Positions 4,725 to 64,000 of a stretch of DNA of 64,000 nt are shown piece after piece (positions within the stretch are counted from its first letter, which is position 1; every line of letters begins with the position of its first letter). Location: assembly GCA_045837725.1 (NCBI GenBank), contig JBEWZL010000075.1:62001-126000 (forward strand), in the 5' to 3' direction. The notes beneath the pieces are model-generated. The model made no database searches, was not told the origin of the DNA, and saw only the letters and a list, made by a program, of their open reading frames with translations. The position numbers were made by a program, and so were the translations under genes. The stretch is from Vermamoeba vermiformis (Eukaryota).

Positions 4725-7700
4725 TTAAGCGACGTTGTTTTCAATGCGCTCGACTTCTTGTGACGCACGCACTGGCTCTTGCTGGGACCGAGCCAAAGCT
4801 TGTTGCAACATTGAAGAGCGCTCGCTTTCACTGAAGCTCTCGCGGATCTTGCGAACTTCTTTGCTGAGAGAGCGGATCAACTCGCGCTTGGAAGAGGTGC
4901 TCAAGTCTTCATCCTTCTTCTCTTTCTTCTTCTTGTGCTTCTTTTCCTTCTTGTCCTTTTTCTTCTTGACACGCTTTTCAGCATCCTTGAACTCTTCAGG
5001 CTCGTCAATCAACAGACCAGCGTCAGCAATCAATGAAGCGAAGTAGCCCTTCTTCTTCAACAGGTCGTGTTTGCTGCCAAATTCGACGACTGAGCCTTGG
5101 TCCATCACCAAAATACGGTCCGAATCGATGATGGTGTCGAGACGATGAGCAATAGTGATCACAGTGCGGTCACCAAACACGTTGCGAATAGTGTTCTGAA
5201 TGAGCGCGTCTGTTTCAAGGTCCATAGCTGAAGTGGCTTCGTCGAGCACGAGGATCTTAGCGTCCTTCAAAATAGCACGAGCCAAACAGAACAATTGCTT
5301 TTGACCGAGCGAGAAGTTGCTGCCTCCAGCATCGATGGGAGTGTCCAACTTGCCCTCGAACTTGTTGACATTGTCCTTCAAGTGAGAGAGCTCCAAAGCA
5401 CGCCACAACAAGTCGTCAGAGTACTCGCCGAAGGGGTCGAGGTTCGTACGAATGGTGCCCTTGAAGAGGACTGGCTCTTGAGGAATGATCGAGAGTCTCT
5501 TTCTGAAGGCCTCAAGACCAAGCTTGCTAATGTCAATGCCGTCGATGATCACTGAACCAGAGCTCAGCTGCACCAAGCGGAACAAAGCCATCAACAAACT
5601 GCTCTTGCCTGAGCCAGTACGACCGACAACACCGATCTTCTCTTGAGGTCGAATCTCGATGGTGACGCCCTTGAGGACCGGCTCTTGGTCGTCACGGTAC
5701 TTCATCACAACTTCGTTGTATTGAATGTTACCCTCAGAAGGCCATTGAGGAGGCACTTCCAATTCGGGCTCGTCACGCTCAGGCTTGATTGTCTTGGTGT
5801 AGTTGACAATGCGCTGAATGGAAGTGACGTGCGACAAGGCATCAGAAGTACCACGAACGAAGAGGGTGAAGAAGACCAACTTCTGGATGGAGTTTGAAAT
5901 AGCCAAACCAGTGGCACTGCCGGCAATGTCAAAGCGCAGACCAACACAGAATAGAGCAGTGGCGACGACAAGCAATGAACCAATGACGTCCAATCGGAAG
6001 GCCAACCACATTTGAAGGTGCTCCAAGTTGTACAGAGCTCTGTGGTTTCTGTCGACACGGTGTTGGGTCTCGAGGATCATGCGCTCTTGAGCTCGGTAGG
6101 CACGAACGATGGAGATACCTTGAATGGTCTCAGACAAGTGGGCGAAGATGGGCGAGTTGGTGGAAGCAGCAATAGTCTTCAACTTCTTCGAGCACTTGAT
6201 GAAGTACCACTGCAAGGCAATCAAAGAGCCGAGCAAAGCAGCGGCAACAATCGTGTAGTAGGGCAACACGACGCAAACCAAAATCATAGTGGTAAGCAAA
6301 ATCATCAAATAAATGATAGTGATGTGCACAATGTCCGGCAAAGTCTCGTCGATAGCGTCTTGATCCTTGGAGAAGGAGTTGAGCAAGTTACCGACAGGAG
6401 TTTGAGTGAAGAAGACAATAGGGGCCTTCAACACACGCTCGAACAATTTGTTGTGCATCTTAGTGGCTGCCTTCAAGACGAACTTGTAGAAGACGACACC
6501 ACGAATAATAAGCAATATGCCGAAGAACGCCACCATGGCAGCGTAGACAACGTTGTAAAACCATTGAGGCTGAACGAATCGATCATCTGTCCAAGCTGAG
6601 ATGAACCAATCGGAAATGATACGGGCAACTTGAGTGACGGCGAAGATGATCATGGAGAACACAAAAGTAGTGCGACCACCTTGCTTGACATACTCCTTGA
6701 TGGCAGCACCTTCACTCACGGCCATGTTTTCAGCGACGGTGAAGTCTTCAGCAACATCGTGAGACAGGTCACTGGCAGCCTTCTTGTTATCCTTCTTTTC
6801 GGGTGTTTCTTCATAGTCACGCCACACAGTGAAGTGTTTAGCCATAACTTCAGAATCGTAGCCACCAAAATAGACCAATTTGCCCTTCTCCATAATGCCG
6901 ACGAGGTCGCAGCTGTGCAAGATTTGAAGTTGATGGGTGACCAAGACAACTGTCTTGCCTTGCAAGTACTCCTTCAAGCAGTATTGGAAGATGTGGTTGG
7001 AGGTGTTTTGATCGACAGCGCTCAAAGGACTGTCGAGCAACAAAATGTCGGCGTCACTGTAGACAGCACGGGCCAAAGCAATGCGTTGTTGTTGACCACC
7101 AGACAAGTTGATACCACGCTCACCGATTTGAGTCATGTCACCATGTTCCAAAATTTGGAAGTCACGCTCGAGAGCGCATGCGAAAACAACGCGCTTGTAC
7201 TTCTCGGCTTCGTAGGGCTTGCCAAAAAGAATGTTGTCGCGCACAGTGCCCATCTGAATGAAGGGCTGTTGCAACAAGTAGCCGACGCGACCGCCAACCT
7301 TGATGGTGCCTTCTTTGCATCGAGCCTCACCAAGAATAGCGCTGAGGAGGGTACTTTTGCCAGAGCCGACAGGACCAACGAGGGCCATCAACTTGCCGTT
7401 CATTTGCATTGAGATGTCGCTGATGATTGGTTCACCATCACCGTAGCCAAAGCTGGCCTTCTCGACAACAATTTCTCCAGGTTGGTCAGCAGCAGGTACC
7501 GGTTGGACCTCAGGGCGCAACAAGAATTTTTGAATGCGCTTGGTGGCAGTGATAGCTTCGGCGAAGGAACGGATGGACTTGGGCAACACGACCAAGGGGA
7601 AACGGAGCGTGTTGAACAAAGAGAGTGTTGTAAAGGCCACGGCAGAAGTGAGTGTACCACCTTCGACGATTGTGTAGAGGGTGAAGATACCGAGAGCCAT

Positions 7701-9207
7701 AAGAGGAGGGATCCAGAAGACAAGCATCAAGTTGACAGTCTTGTACCAACCGTTCTGGCCCAACATCTTCAACTCCTGCTTTCTAATTCTTGCAATTGCC
7801 TCGGCAAAACTATTATCGTAACACGTTAATATATGATTAAAGTTGGGGTTGTAAATAATTACCTTCGTTCCCAACCGTAAAACTTCACTAACTTAATGGC
7901 CAAGAGAATTTCTTGCATGATGTGAATGCGGGAGTCTGTAACGTGAATAGACTTGCTACGGAGACGAGTCACGGCACGACCAATGATCAACTGCATGCCC
8001 AGCACGAACAAAGTCAAGCCTACAATCACGATTAAATTCCGGATCTTTTCATCCTGTTAGACCTAGTCACTTACCTAAGCCAATCAACGCGGAGTATCCC
8101 GTCAAGATAATCAGCAATACCACAATAGCGAGAGCTTAATAAAAATGTTTAGTGAACCCGATCGGAAAATTTAAACTGTATTAAATCAAATCCTACCTTC
8201 AAGAGGGGCAGACCATAGGTAGTGGATATCTACCGCCGCTTCCAAAAGTCTAGTGCAATCGGTTGCAACCAAGCTCACCACATCTCCGGCATCTGGAGCT
8301 ATATTTTCAGCTTTCATCGCCTTGCGGTAAATTGCCGTAGATAAAGCCGCTCTTATTCTAATTCCCAATCTGCAATAAAATAAATATTTAATAAATATCC
8401 ATCTCGAATTTCAGACTTGCTGTCGGAACGCGTGGCCAGATGTGCCGTAAAAGTCACTAAAAACTCCATTATATGTATCTATTCTAATTACCTCGTAGCA
8501 AAGGATGTCATTTGCTGCAAGAAGACACTGAACAAGAAACAAGCGACGAAGAAGGCGCAGGCAAGGGTCCACCCTTCGTAAGCAGGCGCATCTTCGCCAC
8601 GGTTGGCTCGTTGCACAAATGATACAAGCGAGCGGACCAAGTAAAAGCTGGAGAATAATACAAATACACTCCAGCAGAACTTGAATACAGCTGCAATCAT
8701 GAACTGACCAACCCAAGTTCGCCTGATGGCCCTGTACAGCGATCTAAAATAAAGATTAGAAAGGGTTTCTTGTGTTGCAAAAGGATAGAACCATGTGCTT
8801 GGTTATTTTTTCGAGTGTTATAGAGGGAAATTAAATTTTAAATTAACGAATTAACCAATCTAGGTTAATTAATCTAGAGATCAGTTCCCTCACTAAGATC
8901 CGCGAAATACTTACGGGTGCTTTTCTTTAGTCAACTCTTTGTTCCAATTTTTGACGAATTGCTCGTAACAGAAATTCGACTCTTCGCTTTCAGCCAGCAT
9001 CAGATCATCTTCGGTCAGCTTTCCCGCTTTTCCCTTAGAGGCCACGGGTTGCATCCAATGGAAGGCCATGCGTGACAAGAAGTTGGCTTTTTGGTAAGGG
9101 GTCTTCTGCCTTTCAGACTTACTTGCGGATTTGTCGTCATGTTCCATTTTCTTCATTTCCCCAGATTCAACCTTATGGCTGTCATCTTTACCATTAACCT
9201 CGGCCAT
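4725..9207 (-). CDS. ABC transporter, subfamily C (MRP-like, short form without TMD0)
   Basis: TMD-NBD-TMD-NBD layout; Walker A GPVGSGKS and GRTGSGKS; signatures LSGGQQQR and FSLGQKQL; N-terminal lasso-like ANFLSRMAFHWMQP; 5' exons in ORFs 8911-9207, 8488-8700, 8186-8368. Confidence 0.95.
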
Positions 9208-43894: not shown

Positions 43895-44995
43895 ATGGGC
43901 GTTGGTAGAAAACAATCCAGAAAGAGAGCCCGTAAGAACGGTGTAAGTCATGTTATTTTTAAAATTTTTGGAATCGCGATCTAAAACCACCCAGATCGTT
44001 ACCAAGCGTAACAAGAGACCAAAGCGCCCGGCAAGAATCAATAAACCAACTGATTTATTTCGAGAAGCGTGGGATAACGACAAGACACTTCAAGAAAATT
44101 ACGCAGAGATTGGATTAACGTTCGATCCAAACGAAGAAGTGTTGAAAAAACATATTGAATTAATTGATACCGGTATAATTCCAGACTATGAAGATCCTGA
44201 TGACTTTGACCCTGAGGCTATTGAGATCGAAGAGGATGTCGAAGGCAAAGAGAAACTGAAAGAGCTTTTAGATGTACGCCATGCTAGCATTATTTTGCAA
44301 TTATTTATGCTAACAACGTTATTAACTATTCAGGTCCGTGAAGAGGCAGATCCTCGCCAACCAAAGCTTGGTGTCCGTGAGCGTGTATATATTCAGAAGT
44401 TGATTGCTAAGCACGGCACTAACTACAAGGTAAGTCATTCGAGAATGTGGCGACAAAGCACTGCTAACACGGTTGATAGGCCATGGCACGTGACATGAAA
44501 TTGAACTACAACCAATACACAAAGAAACAGTTGAAGCAGAAATGCAAAGTGTACGAAGACTTTTACCGCAATCCTATTGACTATACTGCACTCAACAAGC
44601 AGCGCAAAGAAGAGCGCAAGGCTCAGAGTGCTTTGAATGGCACGAGCAACAACCACAATCTGCCCAAGAAGAAGAAGAAACAAGAATCTGAAAGCGAAGA
44701 GGAGTTTGACGACGAAGATATGGGAGATATGGAAGAGTATTCGGGCGAGGAGAATGAAGACGAAGAGGACGGCGAAGAGATGTCGGGTGAAGATGACATG
44801 GAGGGCGAAGAAGATGAAGAAGAAGACGATGATTTGAACGAGAGTGATATCGATGACCTTGTTGATGAAGACGACGATATGCCTGCCCCCAAGCACAGAT
44901 CCAAGAACAACAAGGGTCGATCGCAGAACAACGCCAGTCATTTTGGTGGAGGACGCCGCAAAAAACAACGATCGACTGTATTTAGAGATAAATAA
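43895..44995 (+). CDS. NOP16: Nucleolar protein 16
   Basis: MGVGRKQSRKR start; WDNDKTLQENYAEIGL..DPN; YIQKLIAKHGTNYKAMARDMKLNYNQYT; acidic tail. Confidence 0.9.
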
Positions 44996-45108
44996 TACCT
45001 TTCAAGCATTTCCATTGTGGTTCGCAACTAACTTTTGATCCGCAATTATTTGCCATTAATCTATTCTTGCTAAAGACACGACCACAAGATGATTTTAGAA
45101 AAAATACT

Positions 45109-47075
45109 ATGAACGATAGTGCATCTGAACACGTGGCAGAAGTCCTCGGGTCGACTATCCCTCTGCAATTGTCTCCACAAGGACTCGCAGACTTTTTTCG
45201 AGCCCATATTAACGCAAACCCGCATCCAGTTCCTCAACCCTTACAAACAACAAATTTATTACAATTACAACCTCAAATACAAGAGCAACAAGAAAATGAG
45301 ACAGTTGATCAACAAGCTATTCTTGATATGGGGCTGCAGCTAGTCCAAGAAAATAATAATTACGAATCCGCTAGTAAAGTTGACGAAGCGCCTAAAAGCA
45401 AAAGGAGAGGAGGCGGAGGAGCGAAGAAAACTAAAAGAGAAAGTAATGCAACGCCAGGGGCTGTTGGTTCCGAGAAGATCAGCCCTTTTCCGATTCAAGA
45501 TGACTACAAGTGGCGCAAATACGGCCAAAAGACATTGAAGGGCAGTGAGTTCCCTCGTGATTATTTTAAATGCTCTGTGCCTCAGTGCAATGCAAAAAAA
45601 CAAGTAGAGAAGTGCATTGAAAATGGCGAAGAAAAGCTGCGTTACATCTACTTCGGCGAGCATACACATCCTCCACCAAAAAGCAGTCACTTATATGCAA
45701 AAGATCAACAATCATTTAAAACTGCCGTAATTGCTGCATTTGATCCCGTATGTATTTCTTAAAAAAATAATATTATTCGCATGATTATGTCATTTTAATT
45801 ACTATCGTATAATTGTAATTAATTGATTACTTTTTTAGAAAGATTTACTAATTATATTTTCCCTAGTTTGTGGCAGATGCGGACAAACTTAATAGTGAGT
45901 TCTTAGAGGAGCTTGAAGAGGCAACGGATGGCGTACAGCAAATAGATGCAAACAATATGCTCAATGGCGTACAGGAACTAACAGACGGCCAAGTAGCTCA
46001 AGCAGATCCAAATCATCAAGAACAAGCGCAAGAGCAACAGCAAGAACAACAAAATTACGAAGGAATGATTGACAGTAATAAGTTGATGATGACAGCTTCT
46101 ACGGAGGATCAAGTGCTAAATATGCTCAAAGATGACAGCGCACAGCAAAATCAACAAAACGGAGAAATGATGGATCCCAATCTCATGTCAGAGTACGCGC
46201 AAGTAGAGAATAGTGTTCAAGGAGATCACGTCATGGATGGCACTGCAATCAACTACGAAGAGTACATGCAGGGTGAGCAGCAACCTCCGACCAAGAAACG
46301 AAAAGCCAGTCGTAAGAAATCATCGAGCAGTCAAATTCGACGCTTGATCGTTGAATGCACGAAAGATATCGATTATATGGAAGATGGATATCACTGGCGC
46401 AAGTACGGTCAAAAAACACTCAAAGGAAATCCTTTTCCACGCAGCTACTACAAGTGCATTGAACCGAATTGCAGCGTGAGAAAGCAAGTTGAACAGACGT
46501 TAGGAGGGTCTATTATCAATATATATGAAGGCTATCATAATCACGCTGGCAATCCACAAGCAGTGGTAAGTTACAAGAGTATTTCGCGGGTATCGGTTAC
46601 TAACCCTGGTGATTAGCCCAATGAAGCACACAAGCGCAAGCACCACGAGATGGCGCAAGCGGAGATAGAAAACACTTTGTTCAACACACTGCTCAGCGAG
46701 CTCAATGAGGGGCAGTCATCACCCAAACGACTTAAGACTGGTGAAGAGAACGTGCCTAATGGCCTCCTCAACACAAGCATGCTGCTCACGACCCCAGGCA
46801 GCATACCCATTCAATTCGATATGGCCAATCTGCAGTATTTGTTTACTCATTCCTCAGTACCGAACATTCTGAAGGGATCCGCCGACAATGCTGGAGATAG
46901 TTCGAATAATACCAATAATACCAATGTACAGTTAGTTGAATCTACCAATAACAACAACACCAATGATAATGTAAGTAGCGAAAACGAACACTTGCTGACC
47001 ACATCTGCTGAGCAGTTGAACGATGTAAATTTGCCGAACGTAGACAGCTCAGTAGATGAGCAATCGACCATGTAA
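45109..47075 (+). CDS. Two-domain (group I-type) WRKY transcription factor
   Basis: DDYKWRKYGQK...PRDYFKC-x4-C...HTH and DGYHWRKYGQK...PRSYYKC-x4-C...HNH; basic NLS-like KKRK between the domains. Confidence 0.95.
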
Positions 47076-59428: not shown

Positions 59429-61235
59429 TTACATGATGACGCGATCACCGAGTTCGGTGCTGACGATTGCGCGGCCAAACAGACGCACATTGTCCTCGAG
59501 CTCGCGCGGCACCGCTTGTTTGGTCTCTTTGAGCAGCTTGAGCAGTTCTTTGCCGATCTTGCACTCGTACGTCAACAGACTCGTCGCCGTGCCTGGTCTG
59601 CCACCACGCGCTGCACGTCCCACGCGGTGAATGTAGTCCTCAATGGTGAGTGGCATGTCGTACAGAATCACGTGCTGAATGCTGTCAATGTCGAGGCCTC
59701 GGCTCGCGACATCAGTAGCGACCAACACATCGAGCTGATCGGACTTGAACGCGCGCATCACTTTGAATCTGAACGGCTGTGACTTGTCGCTGTGCAGTCC
59801 TGCCACGTGGAACTGTTCTATTTTTAGCAGCTGCACGAGCTGATCGACGGTGTGTTTGTTGTCTGCAAAGATGAGCACTGGCGGACGTTCAATCTTGCGC
59901 AGCACTTCGAGCAGTCGCATCTGTGACACCTGTCAGTAAAAGTGACACGTTGACATGCGGTGGCACTCACCTGTTTGTGTGCAGTGTGCACGAAGAGCAC
60001 GTGCTGTGTGAGGCCAGGCGGCAGTGGCGAGCTCAAATCTCCGACTGTGATGTGCACTGGTCGCAGCACGGCACTGCGCGCGACACGCGTGACAGCTGCT
60101 GGCATGGTGGCACTGAACAGCAGTGTTTGGCGAGGTCGACCATTGACACCTGTCAAGCTCTCATCGCAGCGCGCTAAAAATAGCCTCAGCTGTGCCTCCA
60201 TGGACGAATAAGGGTTGTCTTTGATACTTTGCGCTTCTTCTTCTGTTTCCATATTTGGTGCGAGGGTGAGGAGTCGATCGATCTCATCAAACACCAGATA
60301 GGCGAGATTGTTGAGCGGAATGTGATATCGGAGATTGTTCCGCGGGTCAGTCAACTGCAACAACCGACCAGGCGTGGCAATCAGCAGATCCACGCCACCA
60401 CGCAGCACTTCGATTTGAGATTGCGCGGAGATACCTGCGAGTCATGTCAGACGGTGCCACTACCAAATATAGACAAGTACCTCCGACGAGTCCGAGCACT
60501 CTGCGGCCCATGAGTGACTGGTGCGTGTACGGTGGCGTGTACTGGCCAGCCTGCACTGCACACTGCGCGTAGTACTCGAGCCAGCGCTGATATTGCGCGG
60601 TGTACGGCGGAATAATTGACATGCACAGCGCATAGACCTGCTCCACGAGCTCGCGTGTCGGAACAATAATTATTCCGCTCGGTCCCTGGCCTGGTGTCGC
60701 GCGCACCGTGGCAGGATGTGAGAGCAGTGCCAAATAAGGCAATAGATAGGCCAGGGTCTTGCCCGAGCCAGTCGGTGCATTGCCTAATATGTCGCGGCCG
60801 CGCAGTGCATTGCTCAACACTTCGGATTGGATCGGCGTGGGACTCTGTGCTCAGTCAGCGCTGCAACGAGGTCATAATGCAGTCACTACGCACCTGTATT
60901 CTCTTTTCTTGTAATTTAAGCAGAATTTCCTCGCTCAGTCCTGCCTCTGCGAACTCTTTGATGGGTTGTGCTGGATCTTCACCATCCACCTTTACGAGCA
61001 CCTTAGTATCTCATATAATGGACGGCGTATTTGTTTCTGAATTTACCTTAATTTTGTGACGCCGTCTGAACTCGATCAGCTCCTCTTGTGTGAATGAAAC
61101 GACATCTTGCTGCGGAGGGTTGTAATAGGACGCTACAAAGTTGTCTTCTTGTCCCGTGGACTTGTGCTTCAACTTCTTGCGCAGTGGCTCTTGTAGCTCA
61201 TTATCATCATCGAGCTGTGTGTTGTTGTTGCTCAT
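59429..61235 (-). CDS. DEAD-box RNA helicase (DEID variant), DDX41/DDX23-like
   Basis: PTPIQ; APTGSGKT; PTREL; ATPGRL; DEIDR; SAT; PPVLIF; TDVASRGLD; HRVGRAARGG. Confidence 0.9.
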
Positions 61236-61428
61236 ACTGAGTATTCTGCGAATAAGCTTTGACTACAGATCAAGGGTGTTTAACACTAACGAACAGAGCG
61301 GTGTGGCTTAAATACATCACGAATTAATATTTACATTTACATTGTACAAGTGATTCGCATTCACAGCTGAGACCGAAACAAACAGCAGATTTACAAAATA
61401 GATCCCGGCTGTGCGCACGGATCTATTA

Positions 61429-63980
61429 TTATAGGTACTTTTCAGCTGCTTGTTCCTTGCTCAAATCTTTAATCTTCTTTGCCTTGATCAGCTTCTCAGC
61501 CTTCTTCTCCAGCTGCTTCAAGTTCTCCACTTGCTTTTCAGCTTCGCGCGCAATCTTCTCGACGAACTGATCCACAAACTCCGCGAGCAAGCGATCGTTG
61601 ACGTTCCAGTTGAGGTCATTCTTAAGGGCCTTTTGAATAGCCTCCTCGCGACTATTGCTCGGCTTCCAATACTTGAATGCACTGTAGGCGGTGGTGAATG
61701 CCTCTTCGTACTGGATGTGCACGCGACGCACTTGCTGTTCGAACACGCGCAGTTGTTGCAGCAGGGTACGCGTGTCCGTGTCGAGCACCGTGCGTTGCAA
61801 GAGCGGTGCAGGCGTGGAGGAGTGGCGCGTGAGGGCCCATTCGAGTCCGACACGATAGACTTCAGGACACGCGGTGATGGCGCGGTGCACTTCGAAGGCT
61901 TGGCGCCACTGCACGCAGGCACGATAGAACTTGTAGCCCCAGGGGGACATGAGCGAGAGCGGCGAGCCCATGTAGACAAAGAAGGTGCTGAAGTTGGTGA
62001 GTGCCGCGAGTCCGTCGTGTCCAAACAGCACTTGACGCAGCTTGTGGTGCGAGATGTACTTGAAGAAGTTCTTGGGCATCGAGTGGATCACTTCGGGACC
62101 GTTGGGGGCCACAAAGCGCAGCAGATCTGCGTCCTCATGCAAGTTCTTGAGCAGCAGCGCGAACAAGATCATCTCTTCTATAAAGTTGGTCGGCTTCTTC
62201 CAGTTGATGTTGGGCTCGAACTGACTGCGGTGCATCTTGTCCACGTACAGCCCGCGCAACAGGTGACTGTGCTGCAGATTGTCCACTGCAGCATCGTACA
62301 GATCGATCACGTGATCGCCGTAGCCTGCCAAGCACGTGACTGTCACGCCGTAGCTGAGAATGTTCTGCAGTGCTGCGAGCATGAGTTCGTGTTCGTGACT
62401 GAGTGCGAAGGGTGCCGTGTTGAGCTGATGTTTGTGCGGGGCTGTGCTGCACATCTGCTGCACCATCAACACCTCGCGCGAGGAGTGGTGCCACAGACCT
62501 GCCATCGACAAGATGCTCACACTCTGACGGCGCTCCGTGGGCTTGGAGACAATGCCGTGCGTGATCAAGTGATTGGCGACGATGATGGCAAGTGGCACTG
62601 CTTGCGAGTGTGCAATGAACCACACCAGATCTGCGTCTTGCAGATTGCTCTTCAACACGGGATCTGCTTGCACACGCACCAGATAGTTCTCCAAGCGTTG
62701 TGCCACAGTGCCCTCATTCGCGAGAGGGTGCGCGTAGACGTGTTCGAGGGCGGGACACATTTCACGCAGGGCACGCTCCGCTTGTTCCACGTAGAGCTGC
62801 ACTTCGCGCTCCTTCCAGTTGCGCGGTGGATAGGTGCCATCATCGACTTCGAGCACGGCTTGACGATCATTCACGGCCAGCAGGGGCCAGCCATTCAGTG
62901 CCACCAAGCACACTCGCTTCACGCGCAACAAGTCCTCACGACACAGCTCTGACGTGTAGCCAGGCACGTACACCGTGGAGCCCTTGCGTGGTCCAGTCAC
63001 ACCCTGACGCCGTGCAGTGCCGCGCGGATTGTCGCCGAGTCCACGCAATCGTCGCTGTCGCTCTCGGTCCTCATCCTGTGCAGCTGCGCTGGGAGTGCGT
63101 CGATAGGAGGACTGGCGCGAGAAGAGGCCCGCGATGTTGTTGTTGCTGATGCTCTCGCGTGCAGCGTAGTGTTCCTCTTCGGAGGAGGAGAGCTCAAACT
63201 TCTCCATCTTGAACTTGAGCACATCCAGTTCGTGACTCATCTTGCGTGTCTCGCTGTCGCTCTTGTGCTTCAAGACCTCAATGTTGCTGCGCAGTTCGCT
63301 GATCTGTTCCTTCATCTCGCTCTTGTCGCTCTCGTAGTTCTTCAAGTGCTGCTTCAGACCCTCCACCAAGATCGGCACCAGATCTGCGTAGTTGACCGAG
63401 AGATAGCCATTGCGGTCCTCGTGCACCACTTCAGGCAGCACACGACGCACTTCCTGCGCGATCAGACCAATCACTTTGCGTCCTCCGACTTCATTGGCCA
63501 CCAGCTCGTCCTTCCACTGGTAGCGCTTGCCTTGCAGTCGAGTCACAATATCGAGCGCGTCCATAATGTCCTCGGTGTTAGTCTTGAGGCGTATGTCGCT
63601 GTACTGCAAGTAGCCCTTGGCGCGCACGACACCTTGCACATCCAGCGAACCTGGGACCACGTGATCGAAGCCTGTCTCTGGCGCCTCTTGGATCTGATCT
63701 AACTTGCGCTTCTTCTCCACGGGGGCTGTGTATTCAATATGCTCCTCTAATGTACCGCACTGGTGAGCACACAAACGACACTTTATCTAGATCCGAACTT
63801 ACCTTTGACTTCTAACAGAGGGTTGGGCGAAGAAGAGAGCGGCGAGCTATTAGAGAATGAAGGTGATGCAGACAGTGGTTGAGGGTGCGCTAATGGCGAG
63901 GCACCGCTCGCGGAGCTGAATGAATGGCTCGCTGAATCTGGTTGCTGATCGCTGTCAGGAGAACTCATTTCATATTCCAT
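61429..63980 (-). CDS. Peptidase_S74 (intramolecular chaperone auto-processing) domain + coiled coil + YML020W-like alpha/beta-hydrolase fusion; 5' end may lie beyond the window
   Basis: YSDIRLKTN...LQGKRYQW...GLIAQEV..VLPEVV...LSVNY..LVPILVEGLK; heptad region; VALNGWP, LANEGTVAQR, ADLVWFIAHSQAVP, SILSMAG. Frame stays open to base 64000. Confidence 0.82.
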
Positions 63981-64000
63981 CTCAGCACTCGCCACTGGTG

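Follow-up and report, generated by a model that had tools for sequence, protein, structure and literature searches.

The closest described systems to the gene reported here are MYRF, MYRFL and MrfA, in which an immunoglobulin (Ig)-fold N-terminal domain, a nuclear localisation signal (NLS), a beta-stalk, an S74 chaperone with a Ser-Lys dyad and a coiled coil follow one another in that order (PMC3742443, PMC3828593, PMC5473870, PMC8326128). The dyad mechanism and nuclear release have been demonstrated for MYRF and MrfA (PMC3742443, PMC3828593), where the coil drives trimerisation, the dyad cuts before the Ser and the stalk holds the released piece trimeric (PMC8326128, PMC3828593). In the literature consulted, use of this phage chaperone for release in eukaryotes is tied to one layout, an Ndt80-type domain followed by the chaperone and a membrane segment (PMC3742443), and amoebozoan S74 proteins have been listed with NDT80 only (PMC13294678). 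We describe here a gene on the minus strand of a 64,000-nucleotide stretch of Vermamoeba vermiformis DNA (contig JBEWZL010000075.1, positions 62,001 to 126,000; hereafter the window), which shares the order of parts found in MYRF as far as the coil, and which joins the chaperone to an alpha/beta hydrolase of the YML020W type.

Cleavage of MYRF and MrfA requires no membrane segment (PMC3742443, PMC3828593); that of MrfA is rapid, constitutive and efficient without one (PMC3828593), and that of MYRF does not depend on a trimer of the DNA-binding domain (PMC5473870). A long disordered linker connects the DNA-binding domain of MrfA to its stalk (PMC8326128). The protein of the window differs from these systems in its N-terminal domain (the cargo), which has about 130 residues and no NDT80/PhoG match, in the membrane segment, which is absent from 12/12 proteins with the fused hydrolase and has some 480 residues of hydrolase in its place, and in the lack of a Pfam match to the MYRF C-terminal domain 1 half of the MRF domain. 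Differing from MYRF in these three respects, it is best regarded, by analogy, as a protein that would work like MYRF but is not MYRF. Phage Peptidase_S74 chaperones of the endoNF type (PDB 6f45) share the S-D-x-R-x-K motif, GLIAQEV and the closing coil; in phage, however, the fibre carries the chaperone at its C-terminus and discards it, whereas here the chaperone is internal and would stay joined to an enzyme. The literature searched, which lay outside subscription papers and most supplements, contained no description of this architecture or of its cargo, and neither is described in the accessible parts of PMC3742443, PMC3828593, PMC8808424, PMC6873476, PMC5473870, PMC8326128 and PMC13294678.

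Gene structure and splicing

The eukaryotic DNA of the window is compact, and its introns are short. A minus-strand frame, open from 63786 to a stop at 61431-61429, encodes 785 residues (P0001, whose numbering is used below), and no stop separates the chaperone from the hydrolase within it. The first 13 residues of this stop-to-stop frame are intron sequence, as a 56-nt intron with GT..AG borders (GTAAGT..ATTAG) occupies 63747-63802. Upstream, a coding exon at 63803-64000 encodes a Ser/Pro-rich linker equivalent to residues 211-275 of P0154 (95% by tblastn), a full-length orthologue of 1051 residues with 28 cluster members. Over 835 aligned residues P0154 shows 95% identity, and its exon boundary falls at the corresponding place. 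Coding continues beyond 64000, where about 210 more residues, the cargo domain among them, are expected.

Four of 24 listed runs were compared with the window (X1, X4, X5 and X15), X4 and X5 representing two studies whose RNA type was only guessed. Contigs of X4 and X5 (2/4 runs) skip the 56-nt intron, while one contig of X1, a DNA-type run, enters it by 37 nt. Record 13 of X5 (3356 nt) crosses 61318-64000 as a single contig with the intron as its one skip. Past 64000, contigs overhang by 727 nt in X4 and, in this X5 contig, by 729 nt, in agreement with the 628 nt of coding sequence needed. Differences between the runs and the window fall on third codon positions in 37/39 of the coding cases listed, with 21 further differences beyond these. 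The stop codon and a 3' untranslated stretch occupy 61318-61431, and contigs of both X4 and X5 end at 61318 where X1 continues, a weak hint that this is the transcript end.

A single spliced frame thus joins the Peptidase_S74 chaperone to the YML020W-type hydrolase, and the architecture is conserved and genuine. The preliminary description of this stretch had taken the two domains as one gene, as the frame and the X5 contig bear out, although the frame is interrupted by the intron at 63802-63747. The N-terminal cargo that it thought might lie beyond the window is present in P0154, and the motifs it had listed (KKRK, the Ser codon, GLIAQEV, SVNY and AHSQA) all lie on the minus strand where it put them.

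The chaperone and the predicted cut

The Peptidase_S74 intramolecular chaperone occupies 63421-63600 (Pfam E 4e-16), residues 63-122 scoring 59.5 bits over the full 58-position profile of PF13884, whose cut-off is 22. Its dyad is Ser63-Lys68, with the Ser codon at 63600-63598 within YSDIRLK, the Arg at 63591-63589 and the Lys at 63585-63583, while GLIAQEV lies at 63468-63448 and SVNY at 63399-63388. Both the S-D-x-R-x-K dyad motif and a subsequent coiled coil are thus present. The SVNY strand and the coil (63193-63399), which shows a heptad pattern and is conserved in the alignment, would form the trimer core by analogy to MYRF. The cut is predicted between Tyr62 and Ser63; a short beta-helical stalk just upstream of it (63601-63651), which aligns with the MYRF stalk in 7dc3, would be kept on the N-terminal fragment. 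The closest solved relatives of the chaperone are MYRF 7dc3 (E 5e-4) and the phage tail fibre 6f45 (E 3e-3). The S-D-x-R-x-K motif is intact in 30/31 family proteins examined, and the S74 dyad in 12/12 fused proteins.

Ahead of the stalk, 38 residues from the catalytic Ser, lies KKRK (63703-63714), an NLS-like motif found 36-46 residues upstream of the cut in all 12 fused proteins, the linkers around it being otherwise unconserved. Shuffling these linkers produced KKRK in 0-25 of 20,000 trials in the seven proteins tested. The NLS-like motif noted in the preliminary description has held across the fused set.

The chaperone matches 1,496 phage records, with identities of 38-48% in the best 12, and matches MYRF with 21.6 bits only. 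Recruitment of the chaperone independently of MYRF may be envisaged, but stays a lead rather than a result because the phage and MYRF numbers are not directly comparable, one being the best of 1,496 records and the other a single sequence, scored by different programs.

The hydrolase

The YML020W/YMC020W-type alpha/beta hydrolase (PF26147), with a helical C-terminal part, covers 61549-62976, and is separated from the coil by an unconserved linker (62977-63192) whose length varies from 21 to 394 residues across the 12 fused proteins. A search with the C-terminal 521 residues alone found 169 relatives at E ≤ 0.001, of which 150 were listed; the best five (E < 1e-30) all carry S74, and 145 of the 150 have no S74 match. 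In an Atlas feature search, PF26147 (YMC0/YMC35 hydrolase) came out on top, at 0.92 with 174/256 features, and it is precomputed together with PF13884 on 8/25 relatives found with the chaperone region, including P0154. The Pfam copy scanned directly returned no PF26147 match for any protein, so that the window protein itself is unscored against this family. The presence of both domains with an intact dyad, as first proposed, is supported by the Pfam score of the chaperone, the Atlas ranking and the precomputed match on P0154.

The fused copies resemble other PF26147 hydrolases in the positions of the elbow, the Asp and the His and in the C-terminal W-x-P helix region; the named unfused relatives are fungal. 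In contrast, they form a clade of their own in which the HGW loop and an HGP motif are changed. An alignment that retained 155 of 157 sequences allowed a catalytic triad to be assigned by conservation and order, not geometry. The predicted nucleophile is Ser394 (62605-62607), within AHSQA at 62613-62599, being Ser in 140/141 unfused proteins and in 10/12 fused ones, with Thr in the other two. The predicted Asp491 (62314-62316) is Asp in 139/140 unfused rows that have the residue, and the predicted His634 (61885-61887) is His in 128/128 such rows; each is kept in 12/12 fused proteins. No solved structure matched the hydrolase profile at better than E 0.17. Lipase-type Pfam matches are weak and scattered (at most 2/42 members per family), and the nearest clan neighbours are the DUF676, palmitoyl-thioesterase and lipase families, which serve as leads only. 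The putative lipid hydrolase of the preliminary description is accordingly softened here, a lipid substrate being a guess from such weak clan-level matches.

A family with exchangeable tails

Named relatives of the protein occur in Echinamoeba, Cavostelium, Soliformovum, Flabellula, Phalansterium and Planoprotostelium. In the chaperone tree of 30 rows, the hydrolase follows the chaperone in 12, one or two hydrophobic segments follow it in 15, two rows break off early and one has another tail. The 15 have a MYRF-like layout, with the membrane segments after the coil, and membrane segments and hydrolase never occur in the same relative. The membrane label is a 19-residue hydropathy mean of at least 1.9, a crude scale that 0/12 fused proteins pass and that 15/15 membrane-type relatives pass by definition. 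The cargo is present in 9/11 other fused proteins and in 12/15 membrane-type relatives; of the fused proteins that lack it, P0006 may owe this to a split gene call, as the cargo-only piece P0214 suggests.

A single branch sets the fused proteins apart in the chaperone tree (86/95) and in the hydrolase tree (0.998 by FastTree, with 140 of the 155 rows retained), while in the cargo tree their separation from membrane-type proteins is weak (59/91). One fusion event would be the simplest reading of these trees, which are unrooted and built from sequences gathered by likeness to the window protein. The gene belongs to an amoebozoan family in which cargo and S74 are combined with exchangeable tails. 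The earlier suggestion that a hydrolase had replaced a membrane anchor survives in so far as 15 relatives have one, 12 the other and none both; the direction of the change is not given by unrooted trees.

Some members depart from these two layouts. P0213 of Flabellula baltica keeps the cargo, but its chaperone has decayed, with the dyad Lys changed to Asn and no Pfam S74 match, and it is probably an uncleavable member. P0160 shows a further tail type, in which two hydrophobic segments lie on either side of a C2 domain behind the cargo and S74, and in P0162 and P0196 the cargo and S74 are followed by a long tail without membrane segment or hydrolase, a short stretch of which weakly resembles the tail of P0213 (E 0.026). 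By eye, P0164, P0167, P0169/P0209, P0170, P0172 and P0173 have a common lumenal beta domain after the membrane segment, with an NPxFE-like start, for which there was no Pfam match in the members scanned.

The cargo domain

The cargo, common to most relatives, corresponds to residues 68-198 of P0154 (about 130 residues). That of P0154 matched no Pfam family among 24,736 models, though Pfam 38 may hold one absent from the copy scanned, and no Pfam family was common to two of 19 cargo members, nor was there a PDB sequence match. The Atlas, which uses Pfam 38, offered DG1062_N (0.82) and LAG1-DNAbind (0.76), both under the lead level of 0.9. NDT80/PhoG was matched by 0/19 cargo domains at E ≤ 1 and by 0/16 full proteins at E ≤ 0.01 in Pfam. 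The MYRF-like protein with Ndt80-type cargo that had been proposed is thus not borne out, the cargo being by Pfam not Ndt80 but a separate, unannotated Ig-like domain. Crowding limited a search for relatives of the cargo, in which 7,999 candidates were scored and several query proteins were missed, so that the range of the family is a lower bound and its apparent absence from Dictyostelium or Acanthamoeba carries no weight.

A model of the cargo from 19 sequences is an all-beta, Ig-like sandwich (pLDDT 91, pTM 0.83); an alignment-free fold of P0001 (pLDDT 36.8) was not used. The top structural match of the cargo model among 48,161 chains is the Ig-like domain of Pycsar AGS-C (Z 9.6, rmsd 3.7, 109 residues aligned). 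The best 50 also include DNA-binding domains of the s-type Ig fold (a class that comprises STAT, Runt, velvet and CSL), namely Dictyostelium STAT (Z 7.2, rmsd 3.0, 106 aligned), VeA velvet (Z 7.2, rmsd 4.5, 107 aligned) and RUNX1 Runt (Z 7.1, rmsd 2.8, 97 aligned). This whole-domain likeness, beside which the LAG1-DNAbind lead may be set, is however not separated from that to Ig domains that do not bind DNA, and has no counterpart in sequence. MYRF and Ndt80 lie outside the best 50 and p53 outside the rows listed, which excludes no likeness.

Among 27 cargo sequences, 15 conserved polar or basic columns (His, Lys, Arg, Thr or Ser) are confined to segments 9-36, 91-98 and 121-131; the four other loop segments tested have none and hold nearly all insertions. 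Arg and Lys are invariant in an RVTK-GK segment. By strand order, the three basic segments would correspond to a-b, e-f and g-tail, all at the same end of the domain. Ig-fold factors bind DNA at that end. The MYRF barrel has a basic surface at one end (PMC5473870). This circumstantial case suggests that the cargo probably binds DNA.

CudA-like proteins (cudA, spaA, cdl) were considered as a candidate family, since by eye they are alike in being amoebozoan and in size, hydrophobic strand order and basic tail (PMC8808424). In contrast, the family motifs differ, and five motifs are absent from the PMC8808424 supplements. Profile-profile comparison by hhalign gave probabilities of 1.2%, 3.3% and 0.4% (global), and cross HMM searches were not significant. 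In the comparison that gave 3.3%, the real score exceeded 150/150 single-column shuffles, but in another register, and 5/150 block shuffles reached it; elsewhere 12-16/120 block shuffles scored as high, so that the likeness does not stand above block shuffles. The CudA set for this comparison came from a pattern scan that yielded 32 loci, 21 of which matched in frame; three had a stop and one was too divergent, leaving 17 aligned. As a separate observation, CudA-like domains are encoded by 18/32 of these metagenome loci (L002-L031), and none of the 17 in the alignment matches a family of the Pfam copy.

Proposed mechanism and its alternatives

We lean towards a polyprotein that would cleave itself into two products, a fragment that enters the nucleus and probably binds DNA, and a hydrolase trimer left in the cytosol. 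Translation of the spliced mRNA into about 1050 residues, comprising the cargo, the KKRK linker, the beta-stalk, S74, the coiled coil, a further linker and the hydrolase, is well supported. By analogy to MYRF, MrfA and phage tailspikes, the coil and chaperone would very probably trimerise and the Ser-Lys dyad cut before the Ser, probably soon after folding and with no outside protease. It is likely that an N-terminal fragment of about 35 kDa, held as a trimer by the stalk, would then enter the nucleus via KKRK (fragment masses were computed from P0154). Rather less firmly, we would expect its Ig-like domain to bind DNA through the conserved basic segments and to act as a transcription factor, and, about as firmly as this, the C-terminal fragment of about 83 kDa to form a serine hydrolase trimer that stays cytosolic and possibly acts on a lipid. 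Such a design would deliver regulator and enzyme one-to-one to two compartments while the uncut precursor is kept from the nucleus.

Several observations weigh against this proposal. The cargo is encoded beyond the window, its sequence being that of the 95% identical orthologue P0154, and one fused protein, P0002 (708 residues, complete according to its source), lacks the cargo with no explanation of the kind available for P0006. The HGW-loop His is replaced by Asn or Ser in 12/12 fused proteins (NGW in the window protein), and the Gly after the elbow, present in 141/141 unfused proteins, is Ala here (HSQA, not HSQG). DNA-binding folds do not rank above generic Ig domains, 36 rows standing ahead of STAT, and Foldseek searches of the PDB and viral models, as well as a second VIA look, gave generic Ig matches only. 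The three basic segments were picked after the alignment had been seen, and their clustering at one end comes from strand order, not coordinates. Membership of the cargo in the CudA family was rejected at the sequence level, where the profile comparison failed. The residue before the cut is Tyr here and Tyr or Phe in the family, as against Pro in the MYRFs and Thr in endoNF.

It could be that the tail is a pseudo-enzyme or a ligand-binding scaffold, merely a bulky cytosolic tether or timer. Besides the uniform loss of the HGW His, the elbow Gly is Ala or Ser in 3/12 fused proteins, the nucleophile Thr in 2/12 and the pre-nucleophile His changed to Glu in 4/12. We know of no activity for any PF26147 member, and none of the papers listed in a literature search on YML020W concerns its function, as judged by title. 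At about 30% identity, however, the fused proteins have kept the triad Asp and His and a hydroxyl nucleophile in 12/12, and we consider this alternative rather unlikely, if the most serious of those raised.

Less likely still is regulated release, in which the hydrolase would bind a membrane or lipid droplet, or sense its substrate, and so hold the precursor or gate trimerisation or cleavage, the cargo being freed on a lipid signal only. The hydrolase does occupy the place of the membrane segments of 15 relatives, the fusion has been retained across a deep clade, the fused copies altered several motifs while keeping the triad, and the clan neighbours named above include lipase families as leads. 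However, hydrophobic segments are below threshold in 12/12 fused proteins, and an unconserved linker of 21-394 residues between coil and hydrolase would make a poor allosteric path. Because the linker varies in this way and MrfA cleavage is constitutive, as well as rapid and anchor-independent (PMC3828593), self-processing accounts for the protein better than gating by lipid would. The hydrolase as anchor or release gate, the reading closest to the preliminary description, is accordingly the less probable one.

To a similarly low degree, cleavage may occur with a cargo that is not a transcription factor domain and whose ligand is instead RNA, an acidic lipid or a protein. Generic Ig-fold matches, the lack of a Pfam or PDB sequence match, the negative CudA test and Atlas leads below 0.9 would all agree with such a role. 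Against it stand the NLS-like motif strictly kept on the same fragment, the long low-complexity flanks, the restriction of conserved Lys and Arg to three segments and the fact that membrane-type relatives are laid out like MYRF.

That S74 trimerises only and the protein works uncut seems improbable: P0213, with its cargo kept and its dyad Lys replaced by Asn, suggests that cleavage is dispensable in some members, and the residue preceding the Ser is unlike those of the studied cases, but the S-D-x-R-x-K motif persists in nearly the whole family. Two genes or an assembly artefact mimicking a fusion are very unlikely, for while X1, X15 and X4 cover the gene in several separate contigs, no stop lies between the domains, the X5 contig spans the whole, the five best hydrolase-only matches all carry S74 and the fused proteins group in both domain trees.

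The self-processing polyprotein may belong to something broader, which we put forward tentatively and as somewhat less probable than the polyprotein itself: a second amoebozoan family of self-cleaving transcription factors beside MYRF, with a new Ig-fold DNA-binding domain, its own recruitment of a phage-type chaperone and swapped tails (membrane anchors, C2, lumenal domains, hydrolase), here leaving an active lipid hydrolase behind. The family would then use the same switch with a different cargo and exchangeable tails. Should the cargo bind DNA, it would constitute an unrecognised amoebal transcription factor family, invisible to Pfam-based surveys. If the proposed mechanism is true, one autocatalytic cut would couple a metabolic enzyme to a nuclear regulator. 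The role of the C-terminal product of MYRF has been raised as an open point (PMC3828593, PMC5473870), and the present protein bears on it because the corresponding product carries a catalytic triad that can be assayed. The fusion also gives a way into the YML020W family, which is uncharacterised.

Other genes of the window

An intron-rich DEAD-box helicase gene (59429-61240, minus strand) starts about 190 nt past the stop of the gene studied here. The window also contains a renin-receptor-like gene and genes for a BRCT protein, topoisomerase I and a cullin, as well as tandem WRKY-domain frames on the plus strand at 44992-45759 and 45867-46613 (E 6e-22 and 1e-22). Genes for a glycosyltransferase-like protein (700-1581), a cytochrome P450 (3725-4420) and an ABC transporter (4728-7892) adjoin one another, possibly as a small detoxification cluster, or by chance.

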